From Malacoraja senta (taxonomy: Eukaryota): a DNA stretch of 64,000 nt. Each line of letters starts with the position of its first letter. Positions within the stretch are counted from its first letter, which is position 1. A program made the translations under genes and the position numbers. Location: contig CM075992.1 in the NCBI GenBank assembly GCA_038087875.1, forward strand, positions 2,668,001 to 2,732,000, read 5' to 3'. Positions 1,058 through 57,943 of this stretch are shown piece by piece. The notes under the pieces are model-generated. The model was not told the DNA's origin, made no database searches, and was given only the letters and a program-made list of their open reading frames with translations.

Positions 1058-1231
1058 TAACTGAAGCACTAGCTGGCCACGGTAAAGCAGGAAAGGGAAG
1101 TTAGGCTTTAACTTAAGTTTTAACTTTAAGCCTGACGAAGGGTTTCGGCCCGAAATGTCACCTATTTCCTTCGCTCCATAGATGCTGCCGCACCAGCTGA
1201 GTTTCTCCAGCACTTTTGTCTACCTTCGATT

Positions 1232-7780: not shown

Positions 7781-8110
<330 letters not shown>

Positions 8111-8601: not shown

Positions 8602-9545
<944 letters not shown>

Positions 9546-17100: not shown

Positions 17101-18454
17101 TCAGGGGGTATTAAATCAACCCATTTGCGCTATTAGTTTGAGTTTAGTTTATTGTCATGTGTACTGAGGTACTGTGAAATGTTATGGTGTGGTAAACAGT
17201 CAGCTGAAAGACAATACATGGTTACAGTTGAGCCATCCACTGTGTACAGATGCATGATAACAGGAATAGCCATCCACGGTGTACAGATAAAGTGCAAAGG
17301 TTTCCCCTGAGAACCAGGTACCAGTATTATCCCTCGCACACCCATTAAAAGATTTTTTTTTAAATTTCAAAAAGACGTTATTCAATTAATAAATATGTAC
17401 AATACATGAACCGTACAAAAAATTCATCCGACATTTTCGGAGGCTATACAAACATTCAATACTGTTTTCACAAATTTATCCCCCACTGGCGTGGAACCCC
17501 TTCCCTTATTTTTGAGGGGCGTCTCCACCACACCCTGACACCCCCCCCCCCCATGTCCAGCAGCGGAAGGACCATAGACCATTAAAAGATTGAGCAAAAT
17601 ACATAGTACTGAGGTAACTCAGCAGGTTAGGCAGCATCTGTGGAGGTGATGGTACACAAAAATGCTGGAGAAACTCAGCGGGTGCAGCAGCATCTATGGA
17701 GCGAAGGAAATAGGCAACGTTTCGGGCCGAACCCCTTCTTCAGAGGTGATGTTTTAGGCTAGGACTCTCCTTTGGAGTAGAGCAGGGGGGGAAAAAGAGA
17801 GGAGAGGGGCGGGCAAAACAGTTACAGGCGGAAAGGTGGGGGGGGGGGGAAGAGGGTGACTGGCAGAGGAGTGGGGTAATTGGCAGGCTAGAGGTAAGGA
17901 GACAAAAGATGTTACATAAGGAGTGGAGTGAAATGTAGTCGGAGGGAGGGGTGTAGGTGAAAGAGGCCAGGGGAGTGGAACATGTTTTTGTTTAGACTTT
18001 TAGAGATACAGCGCAAAAACAGGCCCTTCGGCTCCGTGAGTCCGTGCCGACGTCGCAGCGATCACTGCACACTATGCTACACACTTTGGATAATTTACAA
18101 TTTCACCAAAGCCAAATAACCAACAAACCTGTACGTCTTTGGATGGAAAAATGAACACCCGGAGAAAACCCACACGATGACTCGATACAAACTCCACACA
18201 GACATTACCCACAGCCAGGATCGAACCTGGATCTCTGGCGCTGTAAGGCGAGTTTTGTTTATTATTGTCACGTGTACTGAAGTACGGAATAAATCTGCTA
18301 TTTATTTGTGTGCTATCCATTTAAAAAGACTATACATGAATACAATCAAGCTGTCCACAGCAGGAGCTCCTCTAGTATATTTGGTCTACAGGGCACAGAC
18401 AAAGAGTATGTATCAACTTCCATGTGACAAGGTCTTGTATCCAATTGATGCCCA

Positions 18455-19412: not shown

Positions 19413-19427
19413 AACCAAAAACAAAAA

Positions 19428-19542: not shown

Positions 19543-21956
19543 ACCAAAAACAAAAATGCCGCTCCAGCATTTTGAGTCTATCTTTGTTCCTTTAACTCGG
19601 CGACGTGACACGATTGCTATTTTATTAACATTGCAATTAAAAAAACTTATTTTTTCAATTGTTGGTCTGAAGAAGGGTCTCTACCAGAAACGTCACCCAT
19701 TCCTTCTCTCCAGAGAAGCTGCTTCGTCCCGCTGAGTTACTCCAGTATTTTGTGCCTATCTTCGGTGTAAACCAGCACCTGCAGTTCCTTTCCACACATC
19801 TGTAGTTCCTTCCTACACATTGCTATCATCATTTCTGAGTGGTGCGCTTTTAAATGTGTGATTTATTTGTAGGAAGTGGCACAAATAATTTTTTTGCCCA
19901 CGGCAAGTTTCACCAAACTAAGTGTGAGGAAATAGTCCCAACCCGAAACGTCACTCGTTCCTTCTCCCCAGAGATGCTGCTTAACCCAATGAGTTACTCC
20001 AGCATTTTCTGTTTGCGATTAATGTTTAAGCAAGTTGTTACACGTAAATACTTGATCTGAAAATCTGAAGTATTTCACTTAAAGTTAGCTCAGTGGTATT
20101 CGGTATGTCCGCCCTGGAGAATAAATGAGATCTTGTTTCGTGATCTTAATAGAAAGACTCCAACCATTTAATTGTACCTCAATTTTTTTGTGTTCGAAGT
20201 GCGACTTGAATCCAGTCTGATTCAGAAGGAAGTGAGTCACAGCTGACAATAAACTCTTCAGTTGTATGTAAAGTTCTTTGCAACCATGTGTGATTTGTTG
20301 GAGTACAGAGGCAAATAAATTGTGGAGTACAGAGGCAAATAAATAAATGATGGGTCTTTGTCCCAAACATTATGGAAGGCACTATATCTGTCTTGTAATT
20401 GCCTGAGTATTGTGCCATGCCACTTTACTGGGCATAGGCCACTTTACTATCTGGGTACTGGGCCACTTTACTATCCACAGAACTTTCTGAATGTCCTTCC
20501 ACTACCTCAACTCTTTCCTTCAAATGTTGCAAACCATGCAATTCTTTTAATATCGTCTCCGGTCGCCATTGCAAATTTCTCTCCCACTTCCTCAATCAAG
20601 TACTCACTGGGAAACACATTGTATAAATTCAATTTGTATCCACATGTTGAACTGTATCAATATGTAGACATCCGTTTGTACATTTTTCTGGCAAAATCTT
20701 TGAGTGAATGTTACTTACTTTTGTGTGATTTATCAGATAAAAACTTGTCGGCTTCCCTTTCCACTTCATCACTGCAAGGAGGTGGTGGGATAAGCATGAA
20801 TAAATTACTTGCAGTTCAGTAAGGTCAATCTGTGTTGATTTAACTGATCTTGGATGAGGCAAGAAATGGTACGGGTGGGAAAACTTCTTTTTGGGGAAAG
20901 TAAGGAGAAATAAAAACAGAAGATGCTGGGAACCTCAGCAGGGCAGGTGGCATCTGTAGAAAGAGAGAGTTTTTTTTACTTAAGCTGTTAACTCTTCTTC
21001 CAGACACACTGCCTGACCTGAGTGCTTAGCACTTTCTATTTTTTGGTTTAGATTTCTAGCATGTGCAGGGTTGGTTTTATTTTTCGAAGTGGGGTGACAG
21101 ATTGTACGACAGTCAGTGTCACAATGTGGATACAATATGGGGAGAAGGCAGGAAAATGTGATTAGGAGGCAGAGATCGGCCATGATTGAATGGTGATATA
21201 GACTTGATTGGTCTAATGGCCTAATTCTACTCCTATAATTTGTAGACAGAAATGTTTTGGGGTTGATTCAGGTGAAATTCTTGTAAGGAGGACTGGTACT
21301 GGCGAGCCTCATATATAAGGAGTACAAATGAAGCAGAAATGCCTTCACAATCAGTTACTTGAGGAATAATTGCATAATAATCTTGTTCTATTGTGTAATC
21401 ACTGATCACCTATAGGATGTATTCAGGTACACAATACCGCTACCACCATCCAACTGTTCTAATGAAACTTTGAAGATAAATGTCAGATCGGCACCTGCCA
21501 AAGTCAATGAACAAATTTTTTTTTTCTTGTCAATCAATCTCCTCCCTCAGAATTGTATTTAATAGTCTATCCAACATGCCATTCCTCAAACGTGTTTTGA
21601 TTGGCTATTTGACAGTGCAAACAATCCAGATTCTAGTCACCTCTGGCATTTACATTCTTGTAAATATAGTGAGTGTTCCAGAAATCTCCTTGTGTTTCCT
21701 GTTGGAAAGAACTGAGGGTAAATTTGACAGTCGCTCACTCACCAGAGCCTGATCCCTATGGCTTGGCAATGTGCCAGCTGATGCTGCAAAGTATAGGGAA
21801 GAGTCCTCGGCAACATTTACTTTAGTTTATGCATTAAATATATTCATGAGTAAGAAATGTTGAATTTACAAAGATAAGTTGGTCATGCCATACTTGGAAG
21901 AGTTTGCAGTCTGAGCTGTCTCATTTCTAGTCAGTATTGTATACTGGGCTGATGTA

Positions 21957-22760: not shown

Positions 22761-23466
22761 GTAAGTGTCCTTGATTATCTCCTTCATGCCCAGATTTCAA
22801 TGAAGACTCAGAACTAAAATCTGACTGTAAATAGTAAACTGCCTGAGGTGATTTTGTGCTATATGCCAGGGAGGAATGGACTTGCCCACATGTGAATCCT
22901 AGTCTTGGATTTTAATGAAGCTGGAGAGAAGTACTAAAACAAGCATAAAAAATAAGTGCAGGAGTAGGCCATTTGGCCCTACGAGCCAGCACCGCCATTC
23001 AATATGATCATGGCTGATCATCCAGAATCAGTACCCTGTTCTTGCTTTTTCCCCATATCCCTTGATTCTGTTCATCCCTCTCTGGTACATTATAATAACC
23101 TCCGAATTCTTTTATTAATAAACCTGAAAACTGTATCATTCTTTGTAAACTTTAGTTTTGGATATGTCTGAATATATTCTTTTAATTAATACATATAATT
23201 TATATTTTCTAATGTGTACTTGAGTAATAATCTAGAACAATGTTGCCCTTTTATACTTTTGTCAAACTCAATAAGGTTTCGCTTAAACAACTATCTACAG
23301 GTGAACAATGTTCAGCTTTTACCTCACTCTCCACTCCAACAGCCTTCCATGCAAACTAAAGACTTGAACCATTCCTATATATCCTTGACTCCATTCACCG
23401 AGAAACCATTAGAAAGCCCTTTGGAGTTGTATTGTATTAACAATTTGTTTTCTTGTTTATTTCTAG

Positions 23467-23936
23467 CCTTTGTCACGCTCTTAAACAGGGACCAAGCAAA
23501 CTCTGCCATTGAGAAACTTCATCAGTCCACATTGCGAGACCGAGAGATTTCAGTCCAGCTGCAGCCTACCGATGCTCTGCTGTGCATTGCAAATCTGCCA
23601 CGCTCCTTCACTCAGCAGCAATTTGAGGAGCTAGTGCGGCCTTTTGGGAACCTGGAAAGATGCTTTCTTGTGTACAGCGAGGTCTCTGGACACTCTAAAG
23701 GCTATGGTTTTGTAGAATACATGAAGAAGGACTCTGCTGCCCGTGCTAAATCGGAGCTGCTGGGAAAGCAGATGAGTACGCGAACCCTCTATGTTCACTG
23801 GACAGATGTGAACCAACTAACTTTTGATCTTACGCATTCTAAGTGCCTGTGTGTAGACAAACTACCACATGATTACAAAGACCTGGAGGGACTCGGTCAA
23901 AACTTCAGCAGTCTCCATCAACCAGCCTACTGTCAG
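23467..23936 (+). CDS. RAVER1: RAVER1 exon 3 (end of RRM1, RRM2, start of RRM3)
   Basis: ttctag acceptor and CAG|gtatg donor; [40 protein letters not shown]. Confidence 0.97.
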
Positions 23937-25375
23937 GTATGATCAATAGTCATGGGATGCAGGCATTCTTAAAGTCTAGGATGATTGCAAGGGCATCCTA
24001 TTCTCCATTATTAATGCCCAGCATTCTGTGCAGCAAAGGCTTGCTTAGTTTTACTTCAATTATTTATTTGTAAGTTTTCAGCCTTTTTAATTGTACAGAT
24101 GCAGCAGTGGATAGTTGTCTTCTGCTTTTGTTTCTATTCTAGTGCCGTTGCTTGAGGTAGTAAAACTAATGACTGGGCCGTTTAATATGATCTTAGCCTA
24201 TCTCCAACATCTGATTCCCTTCGTGCCTCAAACTTCTCATGATATTGCCCTTAAATGAGCACCCAAAGCAGTTTGGAGTATAAAATGGAAAGGCTCTGAC
24301 GTCAATAAATATTATTGAATCCTGGGACTATTTGCCCTATCTGTACATTTAATTGAGGTTATCTCTCATTTTGTAAACAACAGTGAGTAAGGCCTGTATG
24401 ATTTAATTTCTCCTCGTGGGTGAGACAAATTTCCATCTTAAATTGATCAATTTCGGCTGCCTTGGTTTTTTTTAGAAAAAAAAATTGATGAATCTTAGTC
24501 TTAAGGAAGAGGAACATCCTGAATGTAATAATGATTAGGATGATCTAATTTGCAGCACAAAATTGAAGCCATTGCAAATTGCAGTAGACATTTTGAAATT
24601 GTGTCTCTGGAGATAGAAAGGATACATGCTGGATATTCTAGTCCAATAAATGTTGGTATTCATCAGAGGAGATGGCAGCGTTAGGTCTTTCATCATTCCT
24701 TGGCAGTTGAACTGAAGAAAATAAGGAATGATACTGAAGTAATGAACAGGGCATGAAAAGACTGCTAAACCAGCACAATTTTTTTTACTAGGACTACAAC
24801 TTCAATAGGTAGATTAGTTGGTGCGGTCTGGATGCGATATGATAGACTTGGTGCAGGCATCCGATTAATTTGTTTTCTAGCATAAAAATGTAATCAAATG
24901 CTGGTTTATGTTGTGTGATTGATGCAGCAGGAACACTTTCATTCTCATTTCCAATAAATTAGTGACTTTTCATGTGTTGATTTTACAGCAGTTATTACAA
25001 ATCTGACTTGTGAAATGCTGTACTGGGTTACACAGCTGGCTGCTGCTAATTCTGTTTTGTTTTCTGCTATTTTAAAGATTAATTTCCACCTATTTGCAAA
25101 AGATCACTAAGTGCTCTCAAAATGACTTTATATTAATTTTAATTGTGTGTTGGTTCTTTGCCAGATAAAAGTCAGCTTGCTCCATGCACAGCATGCTGAA
25201 TTCTTCCTTTGTAAATTCAGAATGTGAATCGGTATTCGCCACCACTGACTCTGCATTCATATGATGAGGAACATCTGCTAAATCTTCACAATATTATAAT
25301 ATATGCCGTACATTTAGCATTAAGTAATAGAATTAATAAAGGTGCAGCTTTGGAGATAAGGAAAGACTGCACCAG

Positions 25376-25491
25376 AGGTTGACAAAAATGCTGGAGAAAC
25401 TCAGCGGGTGAGGCAACCTCACCCGCTGAGTTTCTCCAGCATTTTTGTCTACCTTCGATTTTCCAGCATCTGCAGTTCCTTCTTAAACAAC
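25376..25491 (+). mobile_element. Penelope-derived fold-back mini-element
   Basis: ~37-bp inverted arms plus the same 3' tail; imperfect 12-bp TSD AGACTG(C/A)ACCAG at 25364-25375 and 25492-25503. Confidence 0.72.
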
Positions 25492-26177
25492 AGACTGAAC
25501 CAGGCTGGGTGACTGAAAAGTTGGACAGAAAGATGGCAGTTTTAAAGGGGTTTACATTTTGAGGGGGTTGTGGAATCAGATTTCGCACTATAACTATTCA
25601 GGCTTGCATCTATGCATGCATTATAAAGTACATTCTTGAAAAATGCTGTTAAGAATAACCGTAACTTTGCAAGGCTTTTGAGATTATGAACATAAAAAAA
25701 GAGGAAACAAATATGTACTTTCATGCCTTATCTGCCCTTCAATAAAGTTGTGGCAGATTTTGTGTGTTGTCCAGTTTCCCCACTCCATCCCTATTTCCCT
25801 TGATCCTGACTGTCCAGCATTCTTCAGTTTTGAGTTTCAATATATCCAGTGATTTGGCCTCGCAACCCTCTTCAATAGTGGCCACATAAGATTTTCAACT
25901 GTGTACAGAAATTTCTTGAGATCTCAAGCCTATACAGCAAACTGCTTATCTTGATACTTTGTGCCTGGCCACACGAGCCTTCCTTCTGTCAGTGATTACA
26001 CTTCAGTTGTGGAATGAATGGTTTTATGCCCTATTGACGTGTATTTTGATTTTTGAGAGTAGTTTCGGGGAGTAAACCACCAACCACCGAGGATCATGAT
26101 CTTGTTTGCTTGTTTACCTTTGTTTATTTCACTTTCCTTGCCCTGCTCACCCATGCTCTATGTCCCTCTTTATACAG

Positions 26178-26369
26178 CTTGCTCAAGGAACCGATGGGCA
26201 GTTTCGAGGTTTTGCTGTTGTGGAATATGAAACTGCAGACAAAGCAGAGGATGTGCAGCAAGAGATGGATGGCATATGGGTCGGTGGCAACCACATTCGG
26301 GTGTCATTTTGTGCACCTGGGCCCCCGGGGCGGAGCATGCTTCCTGCCCTGATAGCAGCTCAAGCTATG
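26178..26369 (+). CDS. RAVER1: RAVER1 exon 4 (RRM3; [15 protein letters not shown])
   Basis: tacag acceptor and ATG|gtgag donor. Confidence 0.96.
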
Positions 26370-26565
26370 GTGAGTCAGCTATCACATTTACTCTCGTGTA
26401 CCGATTTAGAGCGTTTGATCGTCATAATGTTTAAAATATAGACTGAATGGAAATGGAGATCTTAGCAGTTTGTTAGGAAAGCCTAGTTCAATCTTGAACA
26501 TTCCATTCACTTCTAATGACGTAGTCATTAAATATAGTCTTGATTTGTTTTAATTCTTGTCCTAG

Positions 26566-26695
26566 GCAATGAACCGTGGGAAAGGTCTTCTCCCGGAGCC
26601 TAATCCCGTGCAGATTCTGAACAGCCTCAATAATCCAGCAACACTGCAGCTCCTCTTAAACCCATTAATCCATGGAGGAGCTGGTGGGCTGCAGG
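26566..26695 (+). CDS. RAVER1: RAVER1 exon 5, [19 protein letters not shown]...LQLLLNP
   Basis: cctag acceptor and G|gtgag donor; [11 protein letters not shown] signature. Confidence 0.95.
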
Positions 26696-27158
26696 GTGAG
26701 TAACATCGCGTCAGCTGCAGATGGATGTATATTTAATGCTAACCACTATCTTCCTTGGGTTGTTTACAGTGTGCAGGATGCAGTAGTTGTAACTGTTACA
26801 GTCTTCCGGTCACAATGTCTGGTATTGGTTCAGTGTTGTTCTCCTGTGATCTGCTGGACACGTCCTACAACCTGGCATTTTTGCCACTTTTTATACTTCA
26901 TAGTCTGGTTCTGTCACACTGCTCTCATTACCCCATTGATAGGACGACCTCTACAACATATCCCAAAGCAACCCAGTTGTACCCTATCTCAGATATCACT
27001 TGTACTAGTCATCCTTCCCCTGCCTTCCCTGCATTTTGTTTTCTTCCCTTCTCAGTTGTGACAATGTTTTCGACCTGAAACATTAACTCTGATCCTCTAG
27101 CATCTTTTTCAATTGATATCAATTTTTTTTGATAACATTTATGGTTTGTTTCCTTCAG

Positions 27159-27262
27159 GACTTTTAGGAGTTGCACCAACAATGCCACTTTTGGGGAATC
27201 CTGGTTTAAGTGCCGCCCTCCTGCAATTGCTTTTACAGAGCCAAAATCCAGCACAAGTCCAG
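27159..27262 (+). CDS. RAVER1: RAVER1 exon 6 (GLLGVAP, PRI1-like)
   Basis: ccttcag acceptor and CAG|gtaaa donor; phase-consistent. Confidence 0.93.
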
Positions 27263-29567
27263 GTAAATCTCTTCGTACACATACAAAGGGTAAAGAGAAT
27301 ACAATATTTGCTTTGAAGCCTGAGTACAATCTTGAAAGGATTACATTTATAATAAGATGTAGTGGGTCTGTACTTCGTTTTTTCCCTTTTGCTGAAAAGT
27401 AAATATGAAGCATTGATGGTTTTGTTATTATGCCGAGTAAAACTGATGCTCACCATGAAATCGTTGGCAGTCCTGCAAGTGTCTCATTTACTTAATTGAA
27501 CTTGATTTCAATTTAAACTTTCTTGGTTTAAATCCTTCCCCTTTGTTTTGTCCTCTTGTGTGTTTGAAATCATTTTCAGCCATATTGACTCCAGATCATT
27601 GCATGATTGAAGGAACTACAGGAATGACTAAAATTGTATAATCCAGCAGATGATAATTTGGGAATAGTGGGAATGACTGTTTTTGATACCAGTCACTTGG
27701 CTGAGCTGGTTGGTGTGAGAAACAACACGATAAACCTATTCTGAATAATTCAGCAATTTTTGTATATGTTTGGACTGATGTGCTTTCCTCGTATCTTAAG
27801 ATGTAAACAAATTATCCTGTAGATCTAGTTTAGAGATACAGTATGGAAACGGGCCCCTTGGCCCACAGACCAGGCCGACCATCCATCTTTCATGGCAGTC
27901 TGTTATCACACTTTCCCATCCACTCCCTAGGGGCAATTTACAGAGGCTAATTAACCTGCAAACACACAGGTCTTTGGGATGTGGGAAGAAATCCTCAAGG
28001 ACACATGGAGGATGTGCAAACTCGACTCGGTCAGCACCTGGGGTCAAGATCGAGCCCATGTCTCATGCTGTGAGCAGCTCTGCCAGTGCTGTCCTCATAT
28101 TTATCCAGATTATTCATGAATCCCCTCTATAACATTTACTAGTCAATACGTCTTATGTCCATTCTCTTCACATTGCTAAATTTGCAGTTTGCCATGTGGC
28201 GGTTAAAGAAAGAATATGAAAATGAATGTTGCAAACCTGGCTCAATGAGTTGCATGGTATCTGAATGGAAAAGCATCACTCCTCAGTTGAATAGATATTT
28301 CACAATAATTATTTCCTTTAATGTTAATCTTTTTTACAGATACTATGTTTTTTTTGGGGCCTCCACCCAAAATATATTTTGGGAGAGTTCAGGCAACAGT
28401 TTTGTTGCGATTAAAGATGGGACACAAGAAATAGGAGTAATGGAAATGGACTGTTAGGTTCCACAAGCCTGCTGTATAATTCAGTAAAATCATGGTTGAT
28501 CATGCCTGACCAACCACCACTCCTGCCTACATTCCCAGTCTTTGATTTCCACTGCAGTCCAAAATCTATTTTGAGATGTGTTGGTATAATGTACTTCCCT
28601 CTATACATTCACAGCCTTTGATTCCCCTGGTGTCCAACATCTATTTTAAGTTGTATGACGTAGTGTTCTTCACTCACCTACCTTAATATAAACCCTATGA
28701 TCTAAATGAACCCAGCTCCCTGCCCCCTGGGGCTAATTTCCCTTGTGGACAAGGTTTCAATTGTACTGCAAATGCTGTGCCTGAAGTTACTGTGCAATTT
28801 AAGCTGTTTACTGCAGTGCAAAATACCTCTGAGGTTGTCAGGTAAGTTGCTTGAGCTCATTAATGCCCACTCATAAGTGTTCAGCTAAAACCAGCCAGCA
28901 CCAGGAGTAGGTGTCCACTGTATGCAAGATGGAATGGACCAAAATGGGCATAATTTCAATTCCATATTTTTACTCCATATACTTTGCAGTTTTTAGAATT
29001 ATGAGAATTGATTTTCAGCATCAGTCCTTAAAGGCAGCAGAACTTATGTTGGTTGAATGGTGATAGGATAAATGTCAAAGTACATCTCTCGCCTAGTTGA
29101 CAGAGGGGTTAGTTTTATGATCAATGCTTTGAAAATTCATACAGTGGAGGTTTTGGTAAACCTTTTCCTGTAGCTGATGAGAATTGTGCTTTGGTTTATC
29201 CTACACTCCATGTTCCAGTGATTGTCACATTCAAGACAAATGGAAGAGAATGATTCTACCTAATGGTGTTCTCTCACGAACCATGTGGATTCAATAGAGA
29301 TTTCTTTAAACAGCTCCTGTGTTGATGGCTTTCTGTTTTGGGGAGAAAATTGAGGATGAATGCAGATACATTGTTCCAATTCATAGAGAAAAAAAAATCT
29401 TTATATGTTAATTATTGATGGAATTGATTAGATTTTTGTTGGAATGACCCGACCCATGCTGGATGGGCAGAATGGTGGCCTGAAGTGTACTTTTCTATGA
29501 TTCCATTCAAATGAATTGAGCATTCCTTGGCCAGGCATGAGTACAACATTGTCTGCGTGTTTTTCAG

Positions 29568-29673
29568 AAGCCAGGGATTCTGGGTGAATCTCCTTTAGCA
29601 GCTTTGCAACAAAACCCAGGACTTGGAGGACCACCACAACCAGGAAAAGGACTTCTTGGTAATTCGCCGTCAG
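29568..29673 (+). CDS. RAVER1: RAVER1 exon 7, KPGILGESP...GLLGNSPS
   Basis: ttttcag acceptor and G|gtatc donor; KPGILG(D/E)SP signature. Confidence 0.92.
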
Positions 29674-30880
29674 GTATCTCTTAAGTTTTGGAAACCAAGC
29701 CAAGTACTTTATTTACTACCTTCTCCAACTGTGTTGCCAGCCCAAAGTCCTTCTGCATATCATAACTCTTGAGTTCCCCACACTTTACTGTACATGTCCT
29801 ATATGTTATATAGTCCCAGTATCCATCCCTGCGGTATACTAGTTCCAGACATCCAGTCATAAACACCCTTTAACTGCTCCCTTCTGCCTCTTATCACCAA
29901 ATCAACTTTGCTCTCTAATTAAGTATCGCCATAAAATCATTAACTTGCTTATTGCCCAGGCAAAATACTGAGGGGCCAAGCCAATGTCACTGACATCTCA
30001 AGATTGTGGCTCGGTGGTGAGCCAAAGCAGACAAGTTAGCTCATGAATCACTGGCTTGACAGATGTCTTTCAGTAGCCACTTTCCTGTTGCTCAGTGGTA
30101 ATTATTTCACAGTAACTTTCAACTGGCATCACCTTCTCCAGTGGGTCAAAGAGCAAGATCCGTGTGGCATCACGCAGCTGAACAGACCATAAATGAAGGA
30201 CCCAAGGCTTATGGCGGAGAAGGTCTCCCAATATCATGGGCCACTGGAGATATTCTGCTCCATTCAGACACCATGTAAGATTACATGATAATGGAGGATT
30301 TGGAAGACCTTTTTTGTCTAAGCTTTCCATATGTCATTTAATAATTTGTAAAGTTTATAGCCAACGTTATCCAATAATTGGATTGATTTTATAATGACTA
30401 GAATCAATGCAATATATTTTTAACCTTTTTAATTTTTCCCATGTTATTCAAATACCACTTTCAGAAAAATAAATGCTTTGGTCAATAAGCCAACTGGATT
30501 GATGGTCCTCAGCCTATCTTCACCAGTGACTGTTTTTGAGCAGTCTGTCTTTACCCCTTCCTCTTCAGTTTCTCTCTCTGTCTCTGAGGGCCTGTCTTTA
30601 AGTTGAAAACTTCCAGAAACTCCAGGCTGTGAGGTAAAAGGTTCTTTGGCAACCCATCTGTCCATTTTAGAGAACTTTTTATTGTGATTTTAGACTCCGA
30701 GGACTTTCCCTTTTAGAACAGTGAATTGTAGAAGTAGCGTATCTGTAACGTTATTTAAAGATGACACAGTGTCCCTCTTTGGATTATGTTATTGAAGAAT
30801 TACTTCTGGTTTAATTAAGGTTCCAGTCTGGATTTTAATTAAATTATTTTCTGATCTTTTATTATTTATCCCCTTTGCAG

Positions 30881-31134
30881 GACTGAATTATGAAAGGGAA
30901 CATCTGAATCCACCTATGATGCCAATGGGGACATTGCAGAACCAACAATATCATGGACAAATGTCGGCAGATGCGATGGGCATGATGGAGAATCCATCTC
31001 ACTCTCGGCAAGTCTCCTCTCCTCCAGCTTCTATGCAAGGAATCCCCACCTCCATCCTGGGTTCTGTGCTCAATGATTTGAAGAAACAAAGGAACCAGAA
31101 TATGTCTCAAGAGGCTGGCTTGGCTACATCAGGG
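30881..31134 (+). CDS. RAVER1: RAVER1 exon 8 (Met/Gln/Pro-rich low complexity)
   Basis: ccctttgcag acceptor and GGG|gtgag donor; open frame whose phases (1 in, 0 out) join exons 7 and 9; sequence divergent. Confidence 0.82.
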
Positions 31135-31526
31135 GTGAGATATGGATTCAATCAGATGGTTATACCTCCATTTAGTTTAGTTTAGAGATACTTATTGTGT
31201 TATGGATTGTAGATTAAGAATATTGTAGATTATGGAAGTTTATTCCTACAGGGTCAATTTATTCTTAAACGAATGCTTGGAAAGTGATTATCCTAGAGGA
31301 GTGCTTGCAATGCAAATACGAACTGATGCCTGAGATTAATTTAAACCTCTTCCTCATATCTTTTGGATTGTGATCTGTACCATAACTGATTGAAAGAAAA
31401 GTCTGTTCAAGTTCTGAAATGTACTGTTCAAACTGCACTTCAGATATTCTGTTCCTAATTATGGGTAATGATAGAAAGATTGTTCGACGAGAAACAGTGC
31501 GGAGGAGAGTAACAAATGGGAATACA

Positions 31527-31625
31527 AGTCTGAAGAAGGGTCTCGACCCGAAACGTCGCCCATTCCTTCTCTCCAGAGATGCTGCCTGTCCCGCTGAGTT
31601 ACTCCAACATTTTATGTCTATCTTG
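31527..31625 (+). ncRNA. Minimal hammerhead ribozyme motif in a Penelope terminal repeat (representative copy)
   Basis: CTGAAGA-A-GGGTC-TC-GACCC-GAAAC-GTC at 31530-31557. Confidence 0.7.
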
Positions 31626-32110
31626 GGAATATAATTGTCTGCCTTGTGCAGTGTTAATTGTAAGCAGTATGGATTAATGAACACTCATTCCTGTAAAACT
31701 AAAGTTCAACTTATTTGATCAATTGCAAGAAGCAAAAGTGCTGGAGGAACTCTTTAGGTCAGGCAGCATTTTGGATTGGGACGTATCTTTGGTCTATGTC
31801 TCCCTTCCATGACCAATGTTTTGGATATCTGAGCTAGAAGTCGGATTGCAGATACATTTTGCTTGACAACATTTGTGTGAAGCACCATGATGTTTTTACT
31901 GTGTTAACGGTGCTATGGAATGGGTTGTGGTTGAGAAAGATTTGCAAATATGATTAATTGAAACTTGCATCGCTCTGGAATGCAATAGGGAATGGGAGAA
32001 CATTTATTAGAATGAAGATAAAACTATTTGTGTTAACAAGCATTGACGTGTTTAGTGGTGTAGTTGATCCACTTGCGACTGGCTTGAATACCACCAAATT
32101 TCTGTTGCAG

Positions 32111-32201
32111 CCATCTCTGTTGGGAGAGCCACCAAAAGATCTGCGAATGCCTCAAAATCCATACCTCAATCTACGAAGTGTGTTCCCAACTAATCTGTCT
32201 G
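32111..32201 (+). CDS. RAVER1: RAVER1 exon 9, PSLLGEPPKDLRMPQNPYLNL (PRI3)
   Basis: ttgcag acceptor and G|gtatg donor; SLLGEPPKD...NPYLNL signature. Confidence 0.95.
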
Positions 32202-32473
32202 GTATGGAACAATGTAAGGTTTATTTTACTTATGTTCAAATTGCAAAGAATGGGGAAAGTGTGGTAAAAAAGGTTGGCTGTTGCTTTTTGTTCTGGGAAA
32301 TGCTCTGCAAAGAAAGTGAAAGATCGCTGCTGAGTTCTGTAACTTTCATTTTGGTTTTCTCTTACATTATATTCCTAAAGAGACTCCCTTGATCCCCCTT
32401 GCCTATACCTGCCATATCCTACATCAAAACTATTTATTGGCTTTAACATTGATAATGCTCTCCTCTTCAACAG

Positions 32474-32661
32474 CCAACACCAGTAATTCAATGTCCTATG
32501 GGCACAGTACTGGTCTTCTGGGAAACTACCCAAGCTCCAGCCCCAGAATTCATCATGGATCTGGCATCGGTGATTATCCAGAGACTGGAGGCAGTCAGTC
32601 GAGTTACGGCAGCATGGAAAACTATGATAATTACAACCATTCTTACAGGGACTATGGGCAG
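32474..32661 (+). CDS. RAVER1: RAVER1 exon 10 (Gly/Ser/Tyr-rich, includes GLLGNYP)
   Basis: cttcaacag acceptor and CAG|gtatg donor; phase 1 in, open frame. Confidence 0.82.
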
Positions 32662-33364: not shown

Positions 33365-33564
33365 NNNNNNNNNNNNNNNNNNNNNNNNNNNNNNNNNNNN
33401 NNNNNNNNNNNNNNNNNNNNNNNNNNNNNNNNNNNNNNNNNNNNNNNNNNNNNNNNNNNNNNNNNNNNNNNNNNNNNNNNNNNNNNNNNNNNNNNNNNNN
33501 NNNNNNNNNNNNNNNNNNNNNNNNNNNNNNNNNNNNNNNNNNNNNNNNNNNNNNNNNNNNNNNN
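33365..33564. other. Assembly gap (200 N)
   Basis: N run, ~110 bp after a long poly-C run. Confidence 1.
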
Positions 33565-36190: not shown

Positions 36191-39100
36191 ACATACATAG
36201 ATACATAGAAAATAGGCGCAGGAGTAGGCCATTCGGCCCTTCGAGCCTGCACCGCCATTCAATATGATCATGGCTGATCATCCAACTCAGTATCCCGTAC
36301 CTGCCTTCTCTCCATACCCCCTGATCCCTTTAGCCACAAGGGCCACATCTAACTCCCTCTTAAATATAGCCAATGAACTGGCCTCAACTACCCTCTGTGG
36401 CAGAGTTCCAGAGATTCACCACTCTCTGTGTGAAAAAGTTTTTTCTCATCTCGGTCTTAAAGGATTTCCCCCTTATCCTTAAGCTGTGACCCCTTGTCCT
36501 GGACTTCCCCAACATCGGGAACAATCTTCCTGCATCTAGCCTGTCCAACCCCATAAGAATTTTGTACGTTTCTATAAGATCCCCTCTCAATCTCCAAAAT
36601 TCTAGCGAGTATAAGCCAAGTCTATCCAGTCTTTCTTGATATGAAAGTCCTGACATCCCAGGAATCAGTCTGGTGAACCTTCTCTACACTCCCTCTATGG
36701 CTATAATGTCCTTCCTCAGATTTGGAGACCAAAACTGTACGCAATACTCCAGGTGTGGTCTCACCAAGACCCTGTACAACTGCAGTAGAACCTCCCTGCT
36801 CCTATACTCAAATCCTTTTGCTATGAAAGCTAACATACCATTCGCTTTCTTCACTGCCTGCTGCACCTGCATGCCTACTTTCAATGACTGGTATACCATG
36901 ACACCCAGGTCTCGCTGCATCTCCCCTTTTCCTAATCGGCCACCATTTAGATAATAGTCTACTTTCCTGTTTTTGCCACCAAAGTGGATAATCTCACATT
37001 TATCCACATTATACTGCATCTGCCAAACATTTGCCCACTCACCCAGCCTATCCAAGTCACCTTGCCGTCTCCTAGCATCCTCCTCACAGCTAACACTGCC
37101 CCCCAGCTTAGTGTCATCCGCAAACTTGGAGATGTTGCCTTCAATTCCCTCATCCAGTTCATTAATATAAATTGTAAATAGCTGGGGTCCCAGCACTGAG
37201 CCTTGTGGTACCCCACTAGTCACTGCCTGCCATTGTGAAAAGGACCCGTTTACTCCTACTCTTTGCTTCCTGTTTGCCAGCCAGTTCTCTATCCACATCA
37301 ATACTGAACCCCCAATACCGTGTGCTTTAAGTTTGTATACTAATCTCTTATGTGGGACCTTGTCAAAAGACTTCTGAAAGTCCAGATACAACACATCCAC
37401 TGGTTCTTCCCTATCCACTCTACTAGTTACATCCTCGAAAAATTCTATAAGATTCGTCAGACATGATTTACCTTTCGTAAATCCATGCTGACTTTGTCCA
37501 ATGATTTCACCACTTTCCAAATGTGCTGCTATCCCATCTTTAATAACTGACTCTAGCAGTTTCCCCACTACCGATGTCAGACTAACTGGTCTGTAATTCC
37601 CCGTTTTCTCTTTCCTTCCCTTCTTAAAAAGTGGGGTTACGTTTGCTACCCTCCAATCCTCAGGAACTACTCCAGAATCTAAAGAGTTTTGAAAAATTAT
37701 CACTAATGCATCCACTATTTCTGGAGCGACTTCCTTAAGTACTCTGGGATGCAGCCTATCTGGCCCTGGTGATTTATCGGCCTTTAATCCATTCAATTTA
37801 CCCAACACCACTTCCCGACTAACCTGGATTTCACTCAGTTCCTCTATCTCCTTTGACCCGCGGTCCCCTGCTATTTCCGGCAGATTATTAATGTCTTCCT
37901 TAGTGAAGACGGAACCAAAGTAGTTATTCAATTGGTCCGCCATATCCTTGTTCCCCATGATCAATTCGCCTGTTTCTGACTGCAAGGGACCTACATTCGT
38001 TTTAACTAATCTCTTTCTCTTCACATATCTATAAAATCTTTTGCAGTCAGTTTTTATGTTCCCTGCCAGTTTTCTTTCATAATCTATTTTCCCTTTCCTA
38101 ATTAAGCCCTTTGTCCTCCTCTGCTGGTCTCTGAATTTCTCCCAGTCCTCTGGTACGCTGCTTTTTCTGGCTAATTTGTACGCATCATCTTTTGCTTTGA
38201 TACCATCCCTGATTTCCCTTGTTATCCACGGATGCACTACCTTCCCTGATTTATTCTGTTGCCAAACTGGAATGAACAATCTTTGTAGTTCATCCATGCA
38301 GTCTTTAAATGCCTTCCATTGCATATCCACCGTCAACCCTTTTAGAACTAATTGCCAGTCAATCTTGGCCAATTCACGTCTCATACCCTCAAAGTTACCT
38401 TTCTTTAAGTTCAGAACCGTTGTTTCTGAATTAACAATGTCACTCTCCATCCTAATGAAGAACTCAACCTTATTATGGTCACTCTTGCCCAAGGGGGCAC
38501 GCACAACAAGACTGCTAACTAACCCTTCCTCATTACTCAATACCCAGTCTAGAATAGCCTGCTCTCTCGTTGGTTCCTCTACATGTTGGTTTAGATAACT
38601 ATCCCGCATACATTCCAAGAAATCCTCTTCCTCAGCACCCCTGCCAATTTGATTCACCCAATCTATATGTAGATTGAAGTCACCCATTATAACTGTTTTG
38701 CCTTTGTTGCACATATTTCTAATTTCCTGTTTGATGCCATCCCCAACTTCACCACTACTGCTAGGTGGCCTGTACACAACACCCACCAGCGTTTTCTGCC
38801 CCTTAGTGCTTCGCAGCTCCACCCATACCGATTCCACATCCTCCAAGCTAATGTCCTTCCTTTCCACTGCGTTAATCTCCTCTCGAACCAGCAACGCTAC
38901 TCCACCACCTTTTCCTTTCTCGCTATCCCTCCTGAATATTGAATATCCCTGGATGTTCAGCTCCCAGCCTTGGTCACCCTGGAGCCATGTCTCCGTGATC
39001 CCGACTATATCATAATCATTAATAGCTATCTGCGCGTTCAACTCATCGACCTTATTACGAATGCTCCTTGCATTGAGACACAAAGCCTTCAGGCTTGTTT

Positions 39101-39955
39101 TTACAACGCTCTTACCCCTTATACAATCATGTTGAAAAGTGGCCCTTTTTGATTTTTGCCCTGGATTTGTCTGCCTGCCACTTTTACTTTTCACCTTGCT
39201 ACCTATTGCTTCTGCCCGCATTTTACACCCCTCTGTTTCTCTGCTCACCCATTTAAGAAACCCACCACCTCTTATTCTCTGTTTATTATTGTTTTCTTCT
39301 TTCCCCCCTACATGTTGGGTCTGAGTGCTTTCCTTCTCTGCCTCCTGCCTCACACACTGTCTAATAGCTTTCTCTATTTGAGTCCCTCCCCCCAACCATT
39401 CTAGTTTAAAGTCTCCCCAGTAGCCTTTGCAGATCTCCCCGCCAGGATATCGGTCCCCCTCAGGTTCAAGTGCAACCCATCCTTTTTGTACAGGTCGCAC
39501 CTTCCACAAAAGAGGTCTCAATGATCCAGAAATTTGAATCCCTGCCCTCTGCACCAGTCCTTCAGCCACGCATATATCCTCCACCTTGCTCCATTCCTAC
39601 TCTCACTGTCGCGTGGCACAGGCAGTAATCCCGAGATTGTTACCTTTGCTGTCCTACTCTTTAACTCCCCTCCTAACTCCCTAAATTCTCCTTTCAGGAC
39701 CTCTTCTCTTTTTTTACCTATGTCATTGGTACCTATATGTACCACGACCTCGGGCTCCTCTCCCTCCCCTTTCAGGATATCTTGGACACGTTGAGACACA
39801 TCACAGACCCTGGCACCAGGGAGGCAAACTACCATCCGGGTCTCCCGACTGTGTCCACAGAATCGCCTGTCTGACCCCCTAACTATAGAGTCCCCTATTA
39901 GTATCGCCCTCCTCTTCTTTTCATTACCCTTCTGAGCAACAGGACCGGTCTCTGT
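36191..39955 (-). mobile_element. Near-complete CR1-clade LINE: partial ORF1 (SGNH esterase) and ORF2 (APE endonuclease + RT), disabled by stops
   Basis: ORF1 IGDSIVR..CLPGA..HIGTND..DGLHLN; ORF2 CLNARS, GITETWL, MGDFN, SDH, GVPQGSVLGP, KFADDTK; premature stops at 39518-39520 and 36684-36686; octamer-repeat tail at ~36191-36210. Confidence 0.95.
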
Positions 39956-45304: not shown

Positions 45305-45545
45305 GTAGACACAAAAAGCTGGAGTAACTCAGCAGGTCAGACAGCATCTCTGGAGAAAAGGAATAGGTGACGTTTCGGGTCGAAACCCTTCTTCAGACTG
45401 AAGAATCTGAAGAGTCTGAAGAAGGGACTCGACCCAAAACGTCACCTATTCCTTTTCTCCAGAGATACTGTCTGACCGCTGAGTTACTCCAGCTCTTTGT
45501 GTCCATGTTCGGTTTAAACCAGCATCTGCAGTTCCTTCCTAAACA
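45305..45545. mobile_element. Penelope-derived inverted terminal-repeat pair
   Basis: ~95-bp inverted arms with hammerhead-like cores in the centre; similar pairs at ~42570-42740, 47115-47300, 51778-52020, 57135-57345, 61215-61430. Confidence 0.75.
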
Positions 45546-46360
45546 TAAGTATAATGGTGGACTTTCTCAGCTCAATGAGGCTGGGGAAAGTCATGGTGGC
45601 GAGGAACATGTTATGATAAACTATTAATAAACATGGTGCTATAGCAAATAGTGGCACCAACACACCTCAGTGTGGTCTGGAGGAACGCTGGACACCTCCA
45701 CACCACCACCACTCCAACATTAGAACTTTCCATAAAATTGCATTGGAAAACTCTGCTTCCCTCCATCTCTGTTGTAGTCGCATTTTTGTTTTGAGTTTGC
45801 AAACTAAGACTGGTTAGTCATGCAGATGAATGCAAAATATTACATTTCGGAGAAGGCCAGTTACCCCCAGTGACGTGGCCAATATCCATATAACCCTCGA
45901 CTATATTGAAACACGTGATCTGGTCAATATCATGCCACTGCTGCTTGGAGCTCGAGGACAAATTGGCTGCTTGCATCCCTTAAAATACCATCGTAGCTGC
46001 ACTAACACGAGGGGTGCAAACGCTTTGGAATGTCCTGAAAGTAACACGGAAGCGAGTATTTTATTCAACAGCTAATGACGACGTGCACTTCCTCAGCAAC
46101 CTCTGTGGTTCAAATAAAAGATCATTTAATACAATTCAAAGACTGGGGAGGGGAAAGTTTAAGGCCTACTACGTTCGATTTAACTGAAGGCTGAATCATT
46201 GTGGTGATCTGGCACACCTACACACAACGTTAATACACTCTCAGAAGGCCAAGACTTTCTAAAGTGGAAAGTCAGAACACAACAAGCTACAGGACAGAGC
46301 GATTGAATCAAGCGCAAGGAATCAACACCAAAGTGTTAACGGCATTAAGATCAAGATCAG

Positions 46361-46583
46361 ACAACAATGCTGGAGAAACTCAGCGGGTGAGGCAGCATCT
46401 TTGGAGCGAAGGAAATAGGCGACGTTTCGGGTCAAGACCCTTCTTCAGACTGACCGCTGAAGAGGGCTCCACCCAAAACGTCATCTAATCCTTCGCTCCA
46501 TAGATGCTGCCTCACCCGCTGAGTTTCTCCAGCATGTTTGTCTACCTTCGATTTTCCAGCACCTGCAGTTCCTTCTTAAACAA
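46361..46583 (+). mobile_element. Penelope-derived fold-back element with TSD
   Basis: ~90-bp inverted arms plus a tail; AAGATCAAGATCAG at 46347-46360 and 46584-46597. Confidence 0.8.
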
Positions 46584-49597: not shown

Positions 49598-52500
49598 GAA
49601 GGCAGTGGAGGCCAATTCACTGGATGTATTCAAGAGAGAGTTAGATATTGCTCTTGGAGCTAATGGAATCAAGGGATATGGGGAGAAAGCAGGAACGGGG
49701 TACTGATTCTGGATGATCAGCCACGATGATATTGAATGGCTGTGCTGGCTCGAAGTGCCAAATGGCCTACTCCTGCACCTATTTTTTTATGTTTCTAATG
49801 TGAAAAGAGTTCTTTCAAAATAACACTGGATTTCTCTAAATATACTAAGACGGTAATTCTAAGTTTCCATTTATGCTATGTTACAATTAACCGAAGAGCA
49901 CTGTTTCGTTTAGCACTCCATTTTCTAGAAACGCTAATCAAGGCATTACTGTGGAGAGCATTAAAATAGGCAATGCTCTGGCAAATAGAGTAAAAGGCGG
50001 GAAACTGTGCAGTTGTCCATTCTTGCAGCATTAGGGGGGAAAAGCATGCTATCAAAATGCTGAGAGATTGCGGAAAGGCCTGGATGTCTTCGATCATGAC
50101 TTGCACAAGGCCAGCATACACACACGGCAAGTAAAAACAAGAAAGCTGTCATCCTTTACTGTGAGGGAAGTTAGAAAGGTAGGAAAGTTATGCTTCAGTT
50201 GAGAGCAGAACTGATAAGATCTATGATGTTGTGCACTATACTGGAATACTTATTCAAGGAAGTATGTGGTACATTCGAGCCAGAAAAGCTTTACCAGACT
50301 AATATCTGAGATGGGCAGGTTGTGTTCTAGGGAAGGTTTGACAAGCCATCTTGTATCCACTGGAGATAGACACAAACTGCTGGAGTAACTCAGCGGGTCA
50401 TGCAGCATCTCTGGAGAAAAGGAATGGATGACATTTTGGGTCAAGACCCTTCAGAGCGAGAATGGATCTGATTGAAACACTAGAACCAGAGGAGTCTTGA
50501 CCGAGTGGATATGAAGAAAGAGTTTCCTCTTGTGGAAGAATCAAGAACTAGGGAATGACTATTTAAAACTAAGAGGTCATCTAATTTTCCACTGACACTC
50601 ATAACTTACTGAGAATATAACAGAATATGGAGCTGAGGTTACATTCAGATATATCATGATATTATAGAATAGCAGAGCAGGCACATATGTTGTAATATGA
50701 ATATATTTGTAATATGTTTCTCTTGTGTCTCATATGTTGTAACCTGACCTAAATCAAATGCAGTGGTATCTTCAGGCCCAGGTTAAGAACCAAGCTCTAC
50801 AGTGTATTCAGACACTGCAGCACAATAACAGCAGGTTATTGCAAAGGCCCACTGCCTAATCCATCACACTGCTTGGTCACGAAGAATGAAAGGCGTTAAT
50901 ACAAGTTGGTCTGCGATTCTTTTTTTGCTCTCTCCTCAGAGAGCAAAGATTTTCCTTACTTCGTTTGTGGTCAATTTCAGCAATCCACACATGGAGCTTT
51001 TTTGGTATTCATCCATAATTAAACATAACAGCACAGAATAAATGCTTCATCAAATGAAACTGGATCAATAGAAAACATTTCCAAGCACACATTCCCAGCA
51101 CTGACAAAGGATCAGAGGATTTGCAACCGAAGCAATCTTTCTGTTTTCAGGCGATGTCTATTTTCAGTATTTCCTCTTTTTTAATTTCTTTGTCCACGGT
51201 TTGCATTGTACGGAGGGCGTACCACATTTGCAAGTCAAAGCTTCACTGCACATTGACTGCAAAGTACAAGTACATTGTACTCATAAGCTCATTCTAGGGC
51301 TAATGAAGGACATTATCTCCAATGCTCAGCTTCCACACATGGGCAGGTGGGACTCGTGTAGATGGGACATGTTGGCCGGTATGGACAAGTTGGGCCGAAG
51401 GGCCTGTTTCCACCCTGTGTCACTCTGTGACTCTTTGACACAATCACAGAGCCAAAAGACTGCCTGTTCACGTGGAGCTGTTCACATTCATGCTGCATAC
51501 GCCCCTTGTTTTATTGTGGCATAAGAATTGTAATTGTATAATACTAGACACAATTGTACAGACATGGGGAGATAGTTTTCGGAAAGTGGTAATGCAGGTA
51601 GACAGGGAGGTGAAGACAGCACTAGGCACACTTGCCTTCACCAGTCAGGGCATTGAGTACAGGAGTTGGGACGTTATCGTACAAGTGGACGGTGAGAGCA
51701 CACCCCGAGTATTATTTGCATTTCAGATTGCCCAGCTGTAGGAATGACATTGCCAAAGGTAGGCAATTGGGATCTTAGATAGATACAAAATACTGGAGTA
51801 ACTCAGCTGTTCAGCCAGCATCTCTGGAGACAAGTAGGAGGTGATATTTCAGTTCGGAACCCTTCTTCAGACGGTTCCAATCTGAGGAAGTCCCTTCCAG
51901 TCTGAAGAAGGGTCCTGACCCGAAACATCACCTATTTCTTTTCTCCTGAGCCACTGTTACTCCAGTATTTTGTATCTATCTTCAATATAAACCTACATTT
52001 GCTGTTCCTTCCTACACAAATAGACATCTTGGTTGACATTGATGAGTTGGCCAAAGGGCCTGTTTTGGTGCTTTATAACTATCACCCTAACTATGTGGCT
52101 GTCGTGGATCACTGTGCCAAGAGTGTGTGAATGTTTCCCAGAAGTTTCAACATTCTCACCAGAGGTCCTGCAAGTTTATCTTGGATATGGCATAACAGCC
52201 ATTCTACATGAACAGTTTAACCACTAAAGCCATTTGTTTCAATGGATACATTCCCCCCAGCTGCAGACAATCAAACAACGTTAATATTTTTAAGAAAAGC
52301 TGCAAACATTATTGCTGATAAATGAGATTAATTGCAACTGAGATCCGACAATTGGAAAGGAAGCGAATGTACGGGAGAATTTGCACAGAATAACAGGATC
52401 TGGAATGCACCATGCGAGCTATGATGAAAGCAGATTCAAATGCAACTATAAGATAGTAAGGAAAGAAGTCCCCATGTTCAAGTCAAGTCAAGTTTATTCG

Positions 52501-56420: not shown

Positions 56421-57943
56421 ATGTGCATATCTCACCAGCACACTGAGAGTGCCTCTTCATACCGATCAATTGGGGAATTATTTAACTTACTGAACACAAC
56501 TGTACACCAACCTGCCACCTGAATTGTGTGACAAATCCAAAATGTGCTGCAGAATCATCAGATCTGAAAGTCACAATGCAAGCTTTATGCAGACTTGCCT
56601 TATAACCTGAAGCACTTTGCTGAGGTTTCCTGTCAACTGGTAAATTGCATATTTTCAAATATTTAAGGGATTTCACCAACTGTTAGATTCTCAGTACTCT
56701 ACATATTTTATCCAGTTTATGATCGTTTTTGCCTGTCCGGGGTCCAAATCTGCTTCCCCTCAGTAAAATCAAGACAACAATTTCTTCTACTAATTCTCTT
56801 ACAAGAACATTAAAATTATCAAAATATCTTTTGTTACAACCTGCAGGATTTTTTTTAAATAGAGTGGCAACAAACCACCCAATTTTTGAGCACCTTCATC
56901 ATTCATCCTCTTCTCAAATTTGTTATTTGACAAACTGTCAGCAACACCTTCCACGATTGTATTATAGTGAAATGTCAGTAGCAGCAGTATTTAGACAGAT
57001 AAACTATGCCCAGCGTTTTTGTGGACAATATGGACTTGGATAATTTACCATTTGTTGCGGTATGTGTTGTGATTGATCTGTAACAGATTGCATAGATAGA
57101 GGCGCACCCAGTCCTGGAGCACATATCTTCATTTGTGTGTAAGAAGGAACAGCAGATGCTGGTTTACACTGAAATTAGACACAAAATGCTGGAGTATTTC
57201 AGCTGGACAAGCAGCATCTCTGGATAGAAGGAATGGGTGATGTTTTGGGTTGAGTCCTTTCTTCAGACTGAAGAAGGGTCACGGCCCGAAACGTCACCTA
57301 TTCCTACTATCCAGAAATGCTGCCTGTCCAGCTGAATTACTCCAGATGTTGGTTGACACAAAAGGCCACAAAAGTGCTGGAGTAACTCAGTGGGTCAGGC
57401 AGCATCTCGGGTGAACATGGATAGGTGACTTTTCAGATCGGGACCCTTATGAGTCTTGACCCCAAATGTCACCAAGTCAAGTTCTCCAGAGATGCTGCCT
57501 GACCCAGAGGCAGCATCTCTGGATGGAAGGAATGAGTGACGTTGTGGGTCGAGACCATTCTTCATTTTGTAGCCAGATTATCAAGGTCCATTAATAATAA
57601 TCTTAACATTGCCCCATTTGGGGTTCTGGAAGGTTGATTCAGCTTAATATAATTCATCTATCATTTGTGGCATGAAATTCAACTTTCCCACTACTCTGGG
57701 TAAATAAAGTTTCTCCTGAATTCTCCCTAGATTTATTCACACATTTCTTACATGTGCAGCTCCATGGTTTGGATACACTCAGTTTTCCCCTAAAACACCA
57801 CCTAATCCTTTCACAATTTTCAAGAGCTCCAGAAGTTCTTAGCCTTCTCCATTCTAGCGAAACGAAGAAGTGTCTCGACCTGAAACGTCACCCATTCCTT
57901 CTCTCCAGAGATGCTGCCTGTCCCGCTGAGTTACTCCAGCATT

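Follow-up and report, generated by a model that had tools for sequence, protein, structure and literature searches.

Minimal hammerhead ribozymes (min-HHRs) are found in the terminal repeats (pLTRs) of metazoan Penelope-like elements (PLEs), and the class has been known since 2014, so the motif described here is as such no surprise. As set out by Cervera and De la Pena (2014; PMC4209133), a min-HHR combines the CUGANGA strand, an extra base, a G10.1-C11.1 pair and GAAA with a palindromic 15.2-16.2 segment that lacks a helix III, and it lies in a pLTR; copies are mostly single and dispersed, with pairs on opposite strands. The repeat analysed here has all of these features. PLE-type ribozymes are reviewed as cutting slowly even as dimers (PMC6765202). 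For the anole element PAc, nicking of the target followed by internal priming has been shown in vitro (PMC11167929). A CX2-5CxxC linker in the element protein is given as a mark of Neptune or Nematis (PMC8557442), and non-LTR retrozymes have been reported in one chondrichthyan (bioRxiv 10.64898/2026.07.22.740005). Cartilaginous fish were not found in the sections of PMC4209133 covered here or in the 2 supplement files searched. Outside subscription journals and Repbase/Dfam, we found no description of the present family for this group, and the supplements of PMC4209133 and bioRxiv 10.64898/2026.07.22.740005 may list a chondrichthyan element.

What is new here is scale and resolution. In Malacoraja senta an estimated 10^6 fragments, which share a 5' wall and two fixed sites for their 3' ends, make up an in vivo read-out of Penelope insertion. 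We consider it probable that the motif is a min-HHR that starts a Neptune-like pLTR, and that positions 31527-31623 of the window (the whole 64-kb stretch of DNA analysed) are a solo, likely inactive element end in RAVER1 intron 8.

The repeat family and its copy in RAVER1 intron 8

A first-pass annotation of the window had reported a recurring CTGANGA/GAAA motif and read it as the hammerhead core of a Penelope terminal-repeat family. The recurrence was borne out, since CTGANGA-N(8-20)-GAAA occurs 18 times against 2.90 +/- 1.80 expected and none of 100 shuffles reached 18; all sites listed earlier are present, some displaced by a few bases. Members of one repeat, represented in the window by 41 blast pieces, account for 16 of the 18 cores. 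The cores at 12558 and 52773 were rejected as repeat copies and are chance matches, the former (CTGATGA...GAAA, 12558-12578) lying outside the repeat in the apparent last TYK2-like coding exon. Genome-wide (1.94 Gb), an exact 28-base pattern gave 22,907 matches and a control pattern none. A profile built from 13 window copies returned 409 pieces when run on 799.2 kb of sample sequence drawn from the 18 largest contigs, from which the total is estimated by extrapolation at about 10^6 pieces, or some 5% of the genome. The majority are solo ends with a length of about 95 or 130 bp.

The hammerhead search of Rfam that had been proposed as a check found none of the hammerhead families, even with E values up to 10 allowed, when covariance models were run over the whole window. 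Rfam, and also descriptor searches requiring a helix I of 4-5 bp, miss this very large family. Rfam matches to miRNA families, below the gathering threshold, were seen at 42031-42181, 45365-45448 and 19424-19511; these are inverted repeat pairs that would form long hairpins, possible sources of intronic double-stranded RNA. The matches at 42036 and 45365 were rejected as miRNAs, being inverted pairs of the Penelope repeat.

The assignment to Penelope held up. Shared sequence upstream of the motif, leading into a GIY-YIG frame, was present at 7 of the first 30 genomic loci. From 50 loci then chosen by reverse transcriptase (RT), 41 had an endonuclease end and downstream room, and in 35 of these the motif followed the RT-linked GIY-YIG end by 131-236 nt on the same strand, with no antisense case. 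One locus (L073) is a tandem pLTR-ORF-pLTR copy with a period of 3,404, and L078 is similar; the linkage and this order, together with the tail and the head-to-head pairs described below, carry the identification. The full layout is pLTR, an ORF (RT, zinc-finger linker, GIY-YIG), a C/T-rich 3' UTR and a second pLTR. RT, a CX4CxxC linker and GIY-YIG are all encoded in one frame of 593 aa (Pfam E 1.3e-4 for GIY-YIG; RVT_1 weak, E 0.021). Thirty copies of the 5' region place the first ATG of the long frame some 165 nt past C3. Homologues of the protein are RT proteins from elasmobranchs and invertebrates. The linker, CX2-5CxxC in 15 of 20 loci, suggests a Neptune-like clade, although Nematis shares it.

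The copy at 31527-31623 lies, as first proposed, in RAVER1 intron 8 between the coding exons at 30877-31134 and 32111-32221 (Table 1). RAVER1 coding exons 1-10 span 18596-32661. Among named single-exon matches to the RAVER1 exon, rays and sharks rank highest (88-92%), which marks the host as a cartilaginous fish. From 32662 onward the final ~190 aa of the protein were not found, either in the window or in the 100 kb flanking it on each side; they may have been lost in the assembly N gap at 33365-33564. Kinase exons upstream of RAVER1 match a TYK2-like protein. Contigs of related organisms with the unique flank also enter the repeat at this site, so the insertion appears to be shared with them. 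At this copy cleavage is predicted after 31557, and its ACGU could form a helix III only between two molecules. Elsewhere in the window are a young LINE at 36387-39970 (-), with a 970-aa endonuclease-RT frame and an esterase-like frame upstream, which we take to be CR1-like, and fragments of another non-LTR retrotransposon's RT at 2848-3963 (+) in a TYK2-like intron and at 16643-17110 (-) in intergenic DNA.

Table 1. Positions in the window of the intron 8 copy, its parts, the neighbouring exons and other copies of the repeat.
Feature	Position	Strand	Remarks
Sense copy, TYK2-like intron	1129..1226	+	palindrome and first helix I pair lost
UUCG-subfamily copy, without helix I	17659..17744	-	G-G in helix II; 8-bp target duplication
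Sense copy, RAVER1 intron 1	19665..19765	+	helix II broken (C11.1 to A); GGT flank-derived
RAVER1 coding exon 8	30877..31134	+	tblastn; GT donor
Left target-site duplication, 8 bp	31517..31524	+	identical to 31624-31631
Solo short pLTR copy, 97 bp, without tail, Neptune-like Penelope (probable)	31527..31623	+	RAVER1 intron 8
AGT, 5' repeat edge, end of the conserved TCAGT	31527..31529	+	G2.2 and U2.1 are helix I (2 bp), 5' strand
Catalytic strand C3-U4-G5-A6-N7-G8-A9 plus extra base preceding helix II	31530..31537	+	sequence
Helix II, 4 bp GGGU/ACCC, CUCG tetraloop	31538..31549	+	sequence, copy scoring
G12-A13-A14, palindromic ACGU, C17	31550..31557	+	sequence; min-HHR definition as in PMC4209133
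Helix I 3' strand	31558..31559	+	G1.1 wobble with U2.1, C1.2 pairs with G2.2; copy scoring
Right target-site duplication	31624..31631	+	matches left copy
RAVER1 coding exon 9	32111..32221	+	tblastn
Head-to-head pair	45306..45512	.	intact minus copy 45306-45399, decayed plus copy 45413-45512 with tail
Head-to-head pair	46352..46548	.	intact minus copy 46352-46451, decayed plus copy
Head-to-head pair, both decayed	51777..51982	.	blast pieces, copy scoring
Head-to-head pair	57176..57344	.	plus copy has core and palindrome, without helix I (A2.1 opposite A1.1)

Fold, decay and activity of the motif

The type I min-HHR features (CUGANGA/GAAA/UH, an extra base past A9, G10.1-C11.1 and a palindromic helix III) are present, and core, palindrome and pLTR position all match PMC4209133, in agreement with the original hammerhead reading. 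Several details of that reading did not survive. Helix II had been drawn as a 5-bp stem that is closed by a 2-nt loop and stays paired. The fifth pair is C-A in 41 of 324 copies, a CpG-type decay, and it forms in 7 of 25 clusters from other animals, where chance gives 8.7. A hairpin loop of 2 nt is not feasible. From the decay and the chance-level pairing we read helix II as 4 bp with a CUCG or UUCG tetraloop. The stem is broken at 19667 (C11.1 to A), 17743, 4811, 6752, 43986, 47237 and 51870; the GAAAC claimed at 1132 is GAAA-TGTC, and the copy at 51902, another of the listed examples, has lost its ACGT palindrome. Only 3 of 31 window copies scored (31527+, 45399-, 46451-) are fully intact.

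A helix I of GGT with ACC had also been proposed for some copies. In the genome the core follows AGT in 19,603 cases and GGT in 2,686, and upstream of the 30 GGT loci examined the flanks are mixed, with no single sequence in common; a GGT/ACC subfamily was rejected, GGT being an accident of the flank. In every large subfamily (T/C)CAGT leads into the core and the triplet is followed by ACC or GCC, and helix I in this genome's family is accordingly short, 2 bp (GU/AC) as judged from the alignments, not the 4-5 bp looked for. A pattern that required GTC/GAC retrieved four rare copies (L482-L485) in which an additional C precedes the core; they have a helix I of 3-4 bp and homologous downstream sequence, and are possibly an older or ancestral form of the family.

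Outside this genome, 121 metagenome loci of identical spacing (L361-L481), which appear to be animal DNA, gave 25 clusters and 121 copies with enough flank. A GIY-YIG-like match lies in the 600-nt flanks of 17 of the 121, mostly upstream on the same strand. These clusters are partly dependent because a few are singleton relatives of larger ones, and the pattern used to retrieve them dictated GGG/CCC. Across them, helix I pair 2.1-1.1 is present in 25 of 25 (shuffle mean 13.5), 2.2-1.2 in 23 (11.1) and 2.3-1.3 in 18 (11.6), with the fourth and fifth pairs at chance and several pair types in use; 10.4-11.4 pairs in 15 of 25 (p=0.03). Covariation of helix I across other animals' families argues that the fold is genuine, and since the first two to three pairs covary, a helix I of 2-3 bp is natural for this shape. 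The proposed covariation check therefore succeeded for helix I in other animals, whereas within this genome only wobble changes were seen, the subfamily changes at 1.1 and 11.4 retaining pairing as U-G. Many of these metagenome contigs carry animal Penelope hammerheads with clear helix I covariation, some of them 3' of GIY-YIG frames, and they are a ready seed for a covariance model absent from Rfam.

Compensatory helix II subfamilies were also sought in this genome and rejected. There are 714 double-changed matches, and about half of the 100 listed belong to a family with an A-A mismatch inside another repeat; because that family rides in the other repeat, the 714 matches lend compensation no support. 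The composite repeat (L334, L335, L338-L342, L347-L349, L352, L356-L360) has a fixed head-to-head pair, the A-A mismatch in helix II and constant downstream sequence, and its pair has spread as another element's passenger.

Excess conservation of the core had been set beforehand as the refuting test, and none was found among dispersed copies. A stretch of 1.06 Mb yielded 605 profile hits, and the 415 long copies among them were scored for each column: at core positions outside CpGs, 89-99% of copies have the commonest letter, and at invariant positions outside the core, 90-97% do. G12, the general base, is part of a CpG, and 63 of 270 copies have it changed, like other CpG Gs (p=0.31). The dispersed copies thus look unselected and neutrally decaying, and neutral decay among copies is compatible with function of a single copy. 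Core, helix II, palindrome and helix I are all intact in 39 of 310 ungapped homologous copies, and these 39 in 1.06 Mb extrapolate to some 7x10^4 intact copies genome-wide. N7 varies above A6 and A9 (35/283 vs 30/551, p=6e-4), and this excess, with the wobble-kept pairing, hints at selection in master elements; the N7 excess could also be a mutation-context effect.

For 67 intact copies the median of the predicted helix II probability is 0.008, compared with 0.58 for 123 copies from other animals; the low value arises because a downstream C/U tract captures the purine-rich catalytic strand by pairing. For the copy at 31530, opening the core is predicted to cost 7.3 kcal/mol, and a dimer with one core assembled is predicted at -9.7 against -19.8 for the best dimer fold, so by these models it likely misfolds and is inactive. 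An evolved off-switch hairpin was rejected, since shuffled downstream bases pair similarly (in 40 copies a median of 30% of shuffles reach the observed value) and composition explains the misfold.

The misfolding, general in this family, also bears on whether the motif is a vestige even in this lineage's master elements, kept as a promoter or protein-binding site and not for cleavage. Helix I at 2 bp instead of the 3-4 bp of the four rare homologous copies would fit such a history, as would downstream non-core motifs that equal the core in invariance and the independence of PAc insertion from cleavage (PMC11167929). Against it, all large subfamilies retain the exact core, G10.1-C11.1 and ACGU, their changes are confined to N7, H17, loop and wobble positions, and a 2-bp helix I is found in other animals' families too. 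We judge the vestige reading improbable, though it deserves to be kept in view.

The earlier annotation further implied that sense copies in TYK2 and RAVER1 pre-mRNA matter there. Their location stands and their importance is not supported: in the copy at 1132 both the palindrome and helix I's first pair are missing, and the copy at 31530 is predicted to be misfolded. Cleavage of host pre-mRNA with an effect on TYK2 or RAVER1 is unlikely. It has been considered whether intact intronic copies such as 31530 cut host pre-mRNA in trans with another copy, element RNA or element protein and so affect RAVER1 or other genes. This copy does retain a full core, helix II, the palindrome and the 2-bp helix I, intact copies number tens of thousands by extrapolation (about 7x10^4), and the insertion seems to be shared with related organisms. 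The lack of excess core conservation and the predicted misfolding speak against the idea, as does the finding that mapped RAVER1 holds no intact same-strand partner for 31530. A cut within an intron need not block splicing. The PAc ribozyme cuts once its protein is added (PMC11167929); on the other side, min-HHR monomers were inactive and dimers weak in vitro (PMC4209133), and 8 of 9 Xenopus dimers stayed uncut (bioRxiv 10.64898/2026.07.22.740005). We give this possibility very little weight for RAVER1 and other genes, and just as little to element RNA or protein acting in trans at tens of thousands of intact intronic cores.

Copy ends and a proposed route of insertion

Copies have two 3' ends about 35 nt apart, at +88-95 in 111 of 271 and at +120-131 in 72, which correspond to the optional 30-40 nt tail of EN+ Penelope-like elements. 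In PAc, the optional tail was traced to two internal RT starts in vitro (PMC11167929). Target duplications of 8-17 bp are frequent at short copies.

The 5' side is different. Of 512 unbiased copies with an intact 3' part, 218 begin inside the unit, few per base, and at the core's 5' edge 294 copies remain: 128 end there, 108 invert and 58 continue, so that 80% stop or invert. Truncations in the 58 are thinly spread across 24-700 nt. Starts do not peak at the cleavage site (profile positions 30-34 hold 12 of 523, against 36 at 20-29 and 28 at 35-44), which indicates that the insertion templates were uncut. The sole upstream sequence common to all subfamilies is TCAGT. Two features count against a transcription start there: the 5' ends are ragged, retaining 0-5 of its bases, and the G excess that a cap would leave is modest and confounded by inversions, the base before AGT being G in 2,072 cases, A in 1,719 and T in 1,371.

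On balance we favour, at a little under even chances, the reading of the wall at TCAGT as a transcription start. TCAGTCT fits the initiator consensus, YYANWYY. Inr-like motifs have been described in pLTRs before (PMC3846280, PMC2377424). Of 30 copies with the ORF start, 20 run on upstream into the UTR, in keeping with direct or partly tandem pLTRs around the ORF, and 3 begin at the edge. This too counts against a start-site reading, which then needs read-through, circular or jumped templates. TCAGT was not common to other animals' families among the clusters compared.

Under the start-site reading, the element RNA would likely begin at TCAGT, 3-5 nt before the core, and the element protein would nick the target and prime reverse transcription inside the RNA at either of two sites. 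Only some 95 or 130 nt would then be copied, giving the mass of solo copies, and a read-through RNA would serve as template for copying into the UTR and ORF. The ribozyme would probably be under selection in active master elements, its dimers cleaving by way of ACGU with the element protein probably acting as chaperone, and dispersed insertions would stem from uncut templates and then decay neutrally. Taken together, an RNA start 3-5 nt before the core and RT priming ~95 or 130 nt downstream would mean that most transposition copied only the capped, uncut 5' tip, a scheme we regard as tentative and as a shade less probable than the start site itself. If it is true, about 5% of the genome is a fossil record of run-off cDNA that maps the start site and the RT starts, and the run-off model would explain why Penelope hammerheads are mostly single and would limit helix I to 2-3 bp.

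The inversions at the edge could instead mark self-priming or strand switching at the near-palindrome TCAG-T-CTGA, with copies made from a fold-back or an antisense template. The 108 of 294 copies that invert there, the excess of head-to-head over tail-to-tail arrangements among close pairs of 387 copies (53 and 15, with 24 on the same strand) and the clustering of strand-switch joints at 31527-31530 in four other runs all speak for this, and palindromes at inverted pLTR junctions have been interpreted as self-priming on antisense RNA (PMC3846280). Against it stand the 128 copies that end at the edge uninverted, of which some have clean target duplications. Fixed 3' ends, combined with 5' truncations scattered along the UTR, are also in line with a sense template. 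Self-priming alone seems unlikely to us, though a serious contender; it may also be that both readings are true.

The same edge resembles a spliceosomal acceptor, in that a C/T-rich tract ending in CAG precedes the core; splicing could rebuild helix I, as in Drosophila virilis Penelope, the precedent described in PMC4209133. YCAG|T is kept across all subfamilies and several have CAG|GTAG at the ORF stop. Yet no donor is conserved among subfamilies, copies with a spliced junction number 0 against 5,613 unspliced (a contrast that intron retention could produce), none of the 15 joints listed of 58 has GT..AG ends (four contig sets, possibly DNA), and the proposed splice would not alter helix I in its first four bases. 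An intron gating helix I is thus unsupported, with neither a conserved donor nor spliced copies, and an acceptor at this edge is quite improbable. Whichever way it formed, the 5' wall is a testable clue to the Penelope cycle.

Comparison with known systems

Against the min-HHRs of PMC4209133, helix I is 2 bp here, as in D. virilis, and 4-5 bp in S. mansoni, whose helix II has 7-8 bp against 4 bp here; the ~10^6 fragments exceed the 4,000-9,000 min-HHRs given for coelacanth and Xenopus, although counting methods differ.

PAc (Poseidon, Anolis carolinensis; Frangieh et al. 2024, PMC11167929) has the same two internal RT starts and optional tail, the same hammerhead near the ORF start and uncut RNA as insertion template. 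It differs in that the present element has a Neptune-type linker and a first ATG ~165 nt past C3, where PAc has it at helix II. The genomic copies thus agree with one in vitro study, on internal priming and an uncut template, in a second clade, and this bears on the purpose of the pLTR hammerhead. As described for the Neptune clade (PMC8557442), the element combines RT, a CX2-5CxxC linker and, at the C terminus, GIY-YIG with a hammerhead near the 3' end, but its target duplications are mostly not (TA)n microsatellites.

Non-LTR retrozymes (bioRxiv 10.64898/2026.07.22.740005) are likewise short units, related to pLTRs and non-coding, that carry a type I hammerhead. They form tandem arrays, whereas the copies here are dispersed monomers or head-to-head pairs with few same-strand neighbours (24 close pairs among 387 copies), and identity with tandem retrozymes was rejected on this dispersal. 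The pLTRs of Adineta vaga (PMC3846280) show the same inverted 5' pLTR, junction palindrome, 8-10 bp target duplications and solo pLTRs, and likewise a 31-bp tail and an Inr-like motif; copies are few there, and here solo ends beginning at the ribozyme dominate. By every testable feature save helix I length and the Rfam model, the repeat is the known Penelope pLTR hammerhead.
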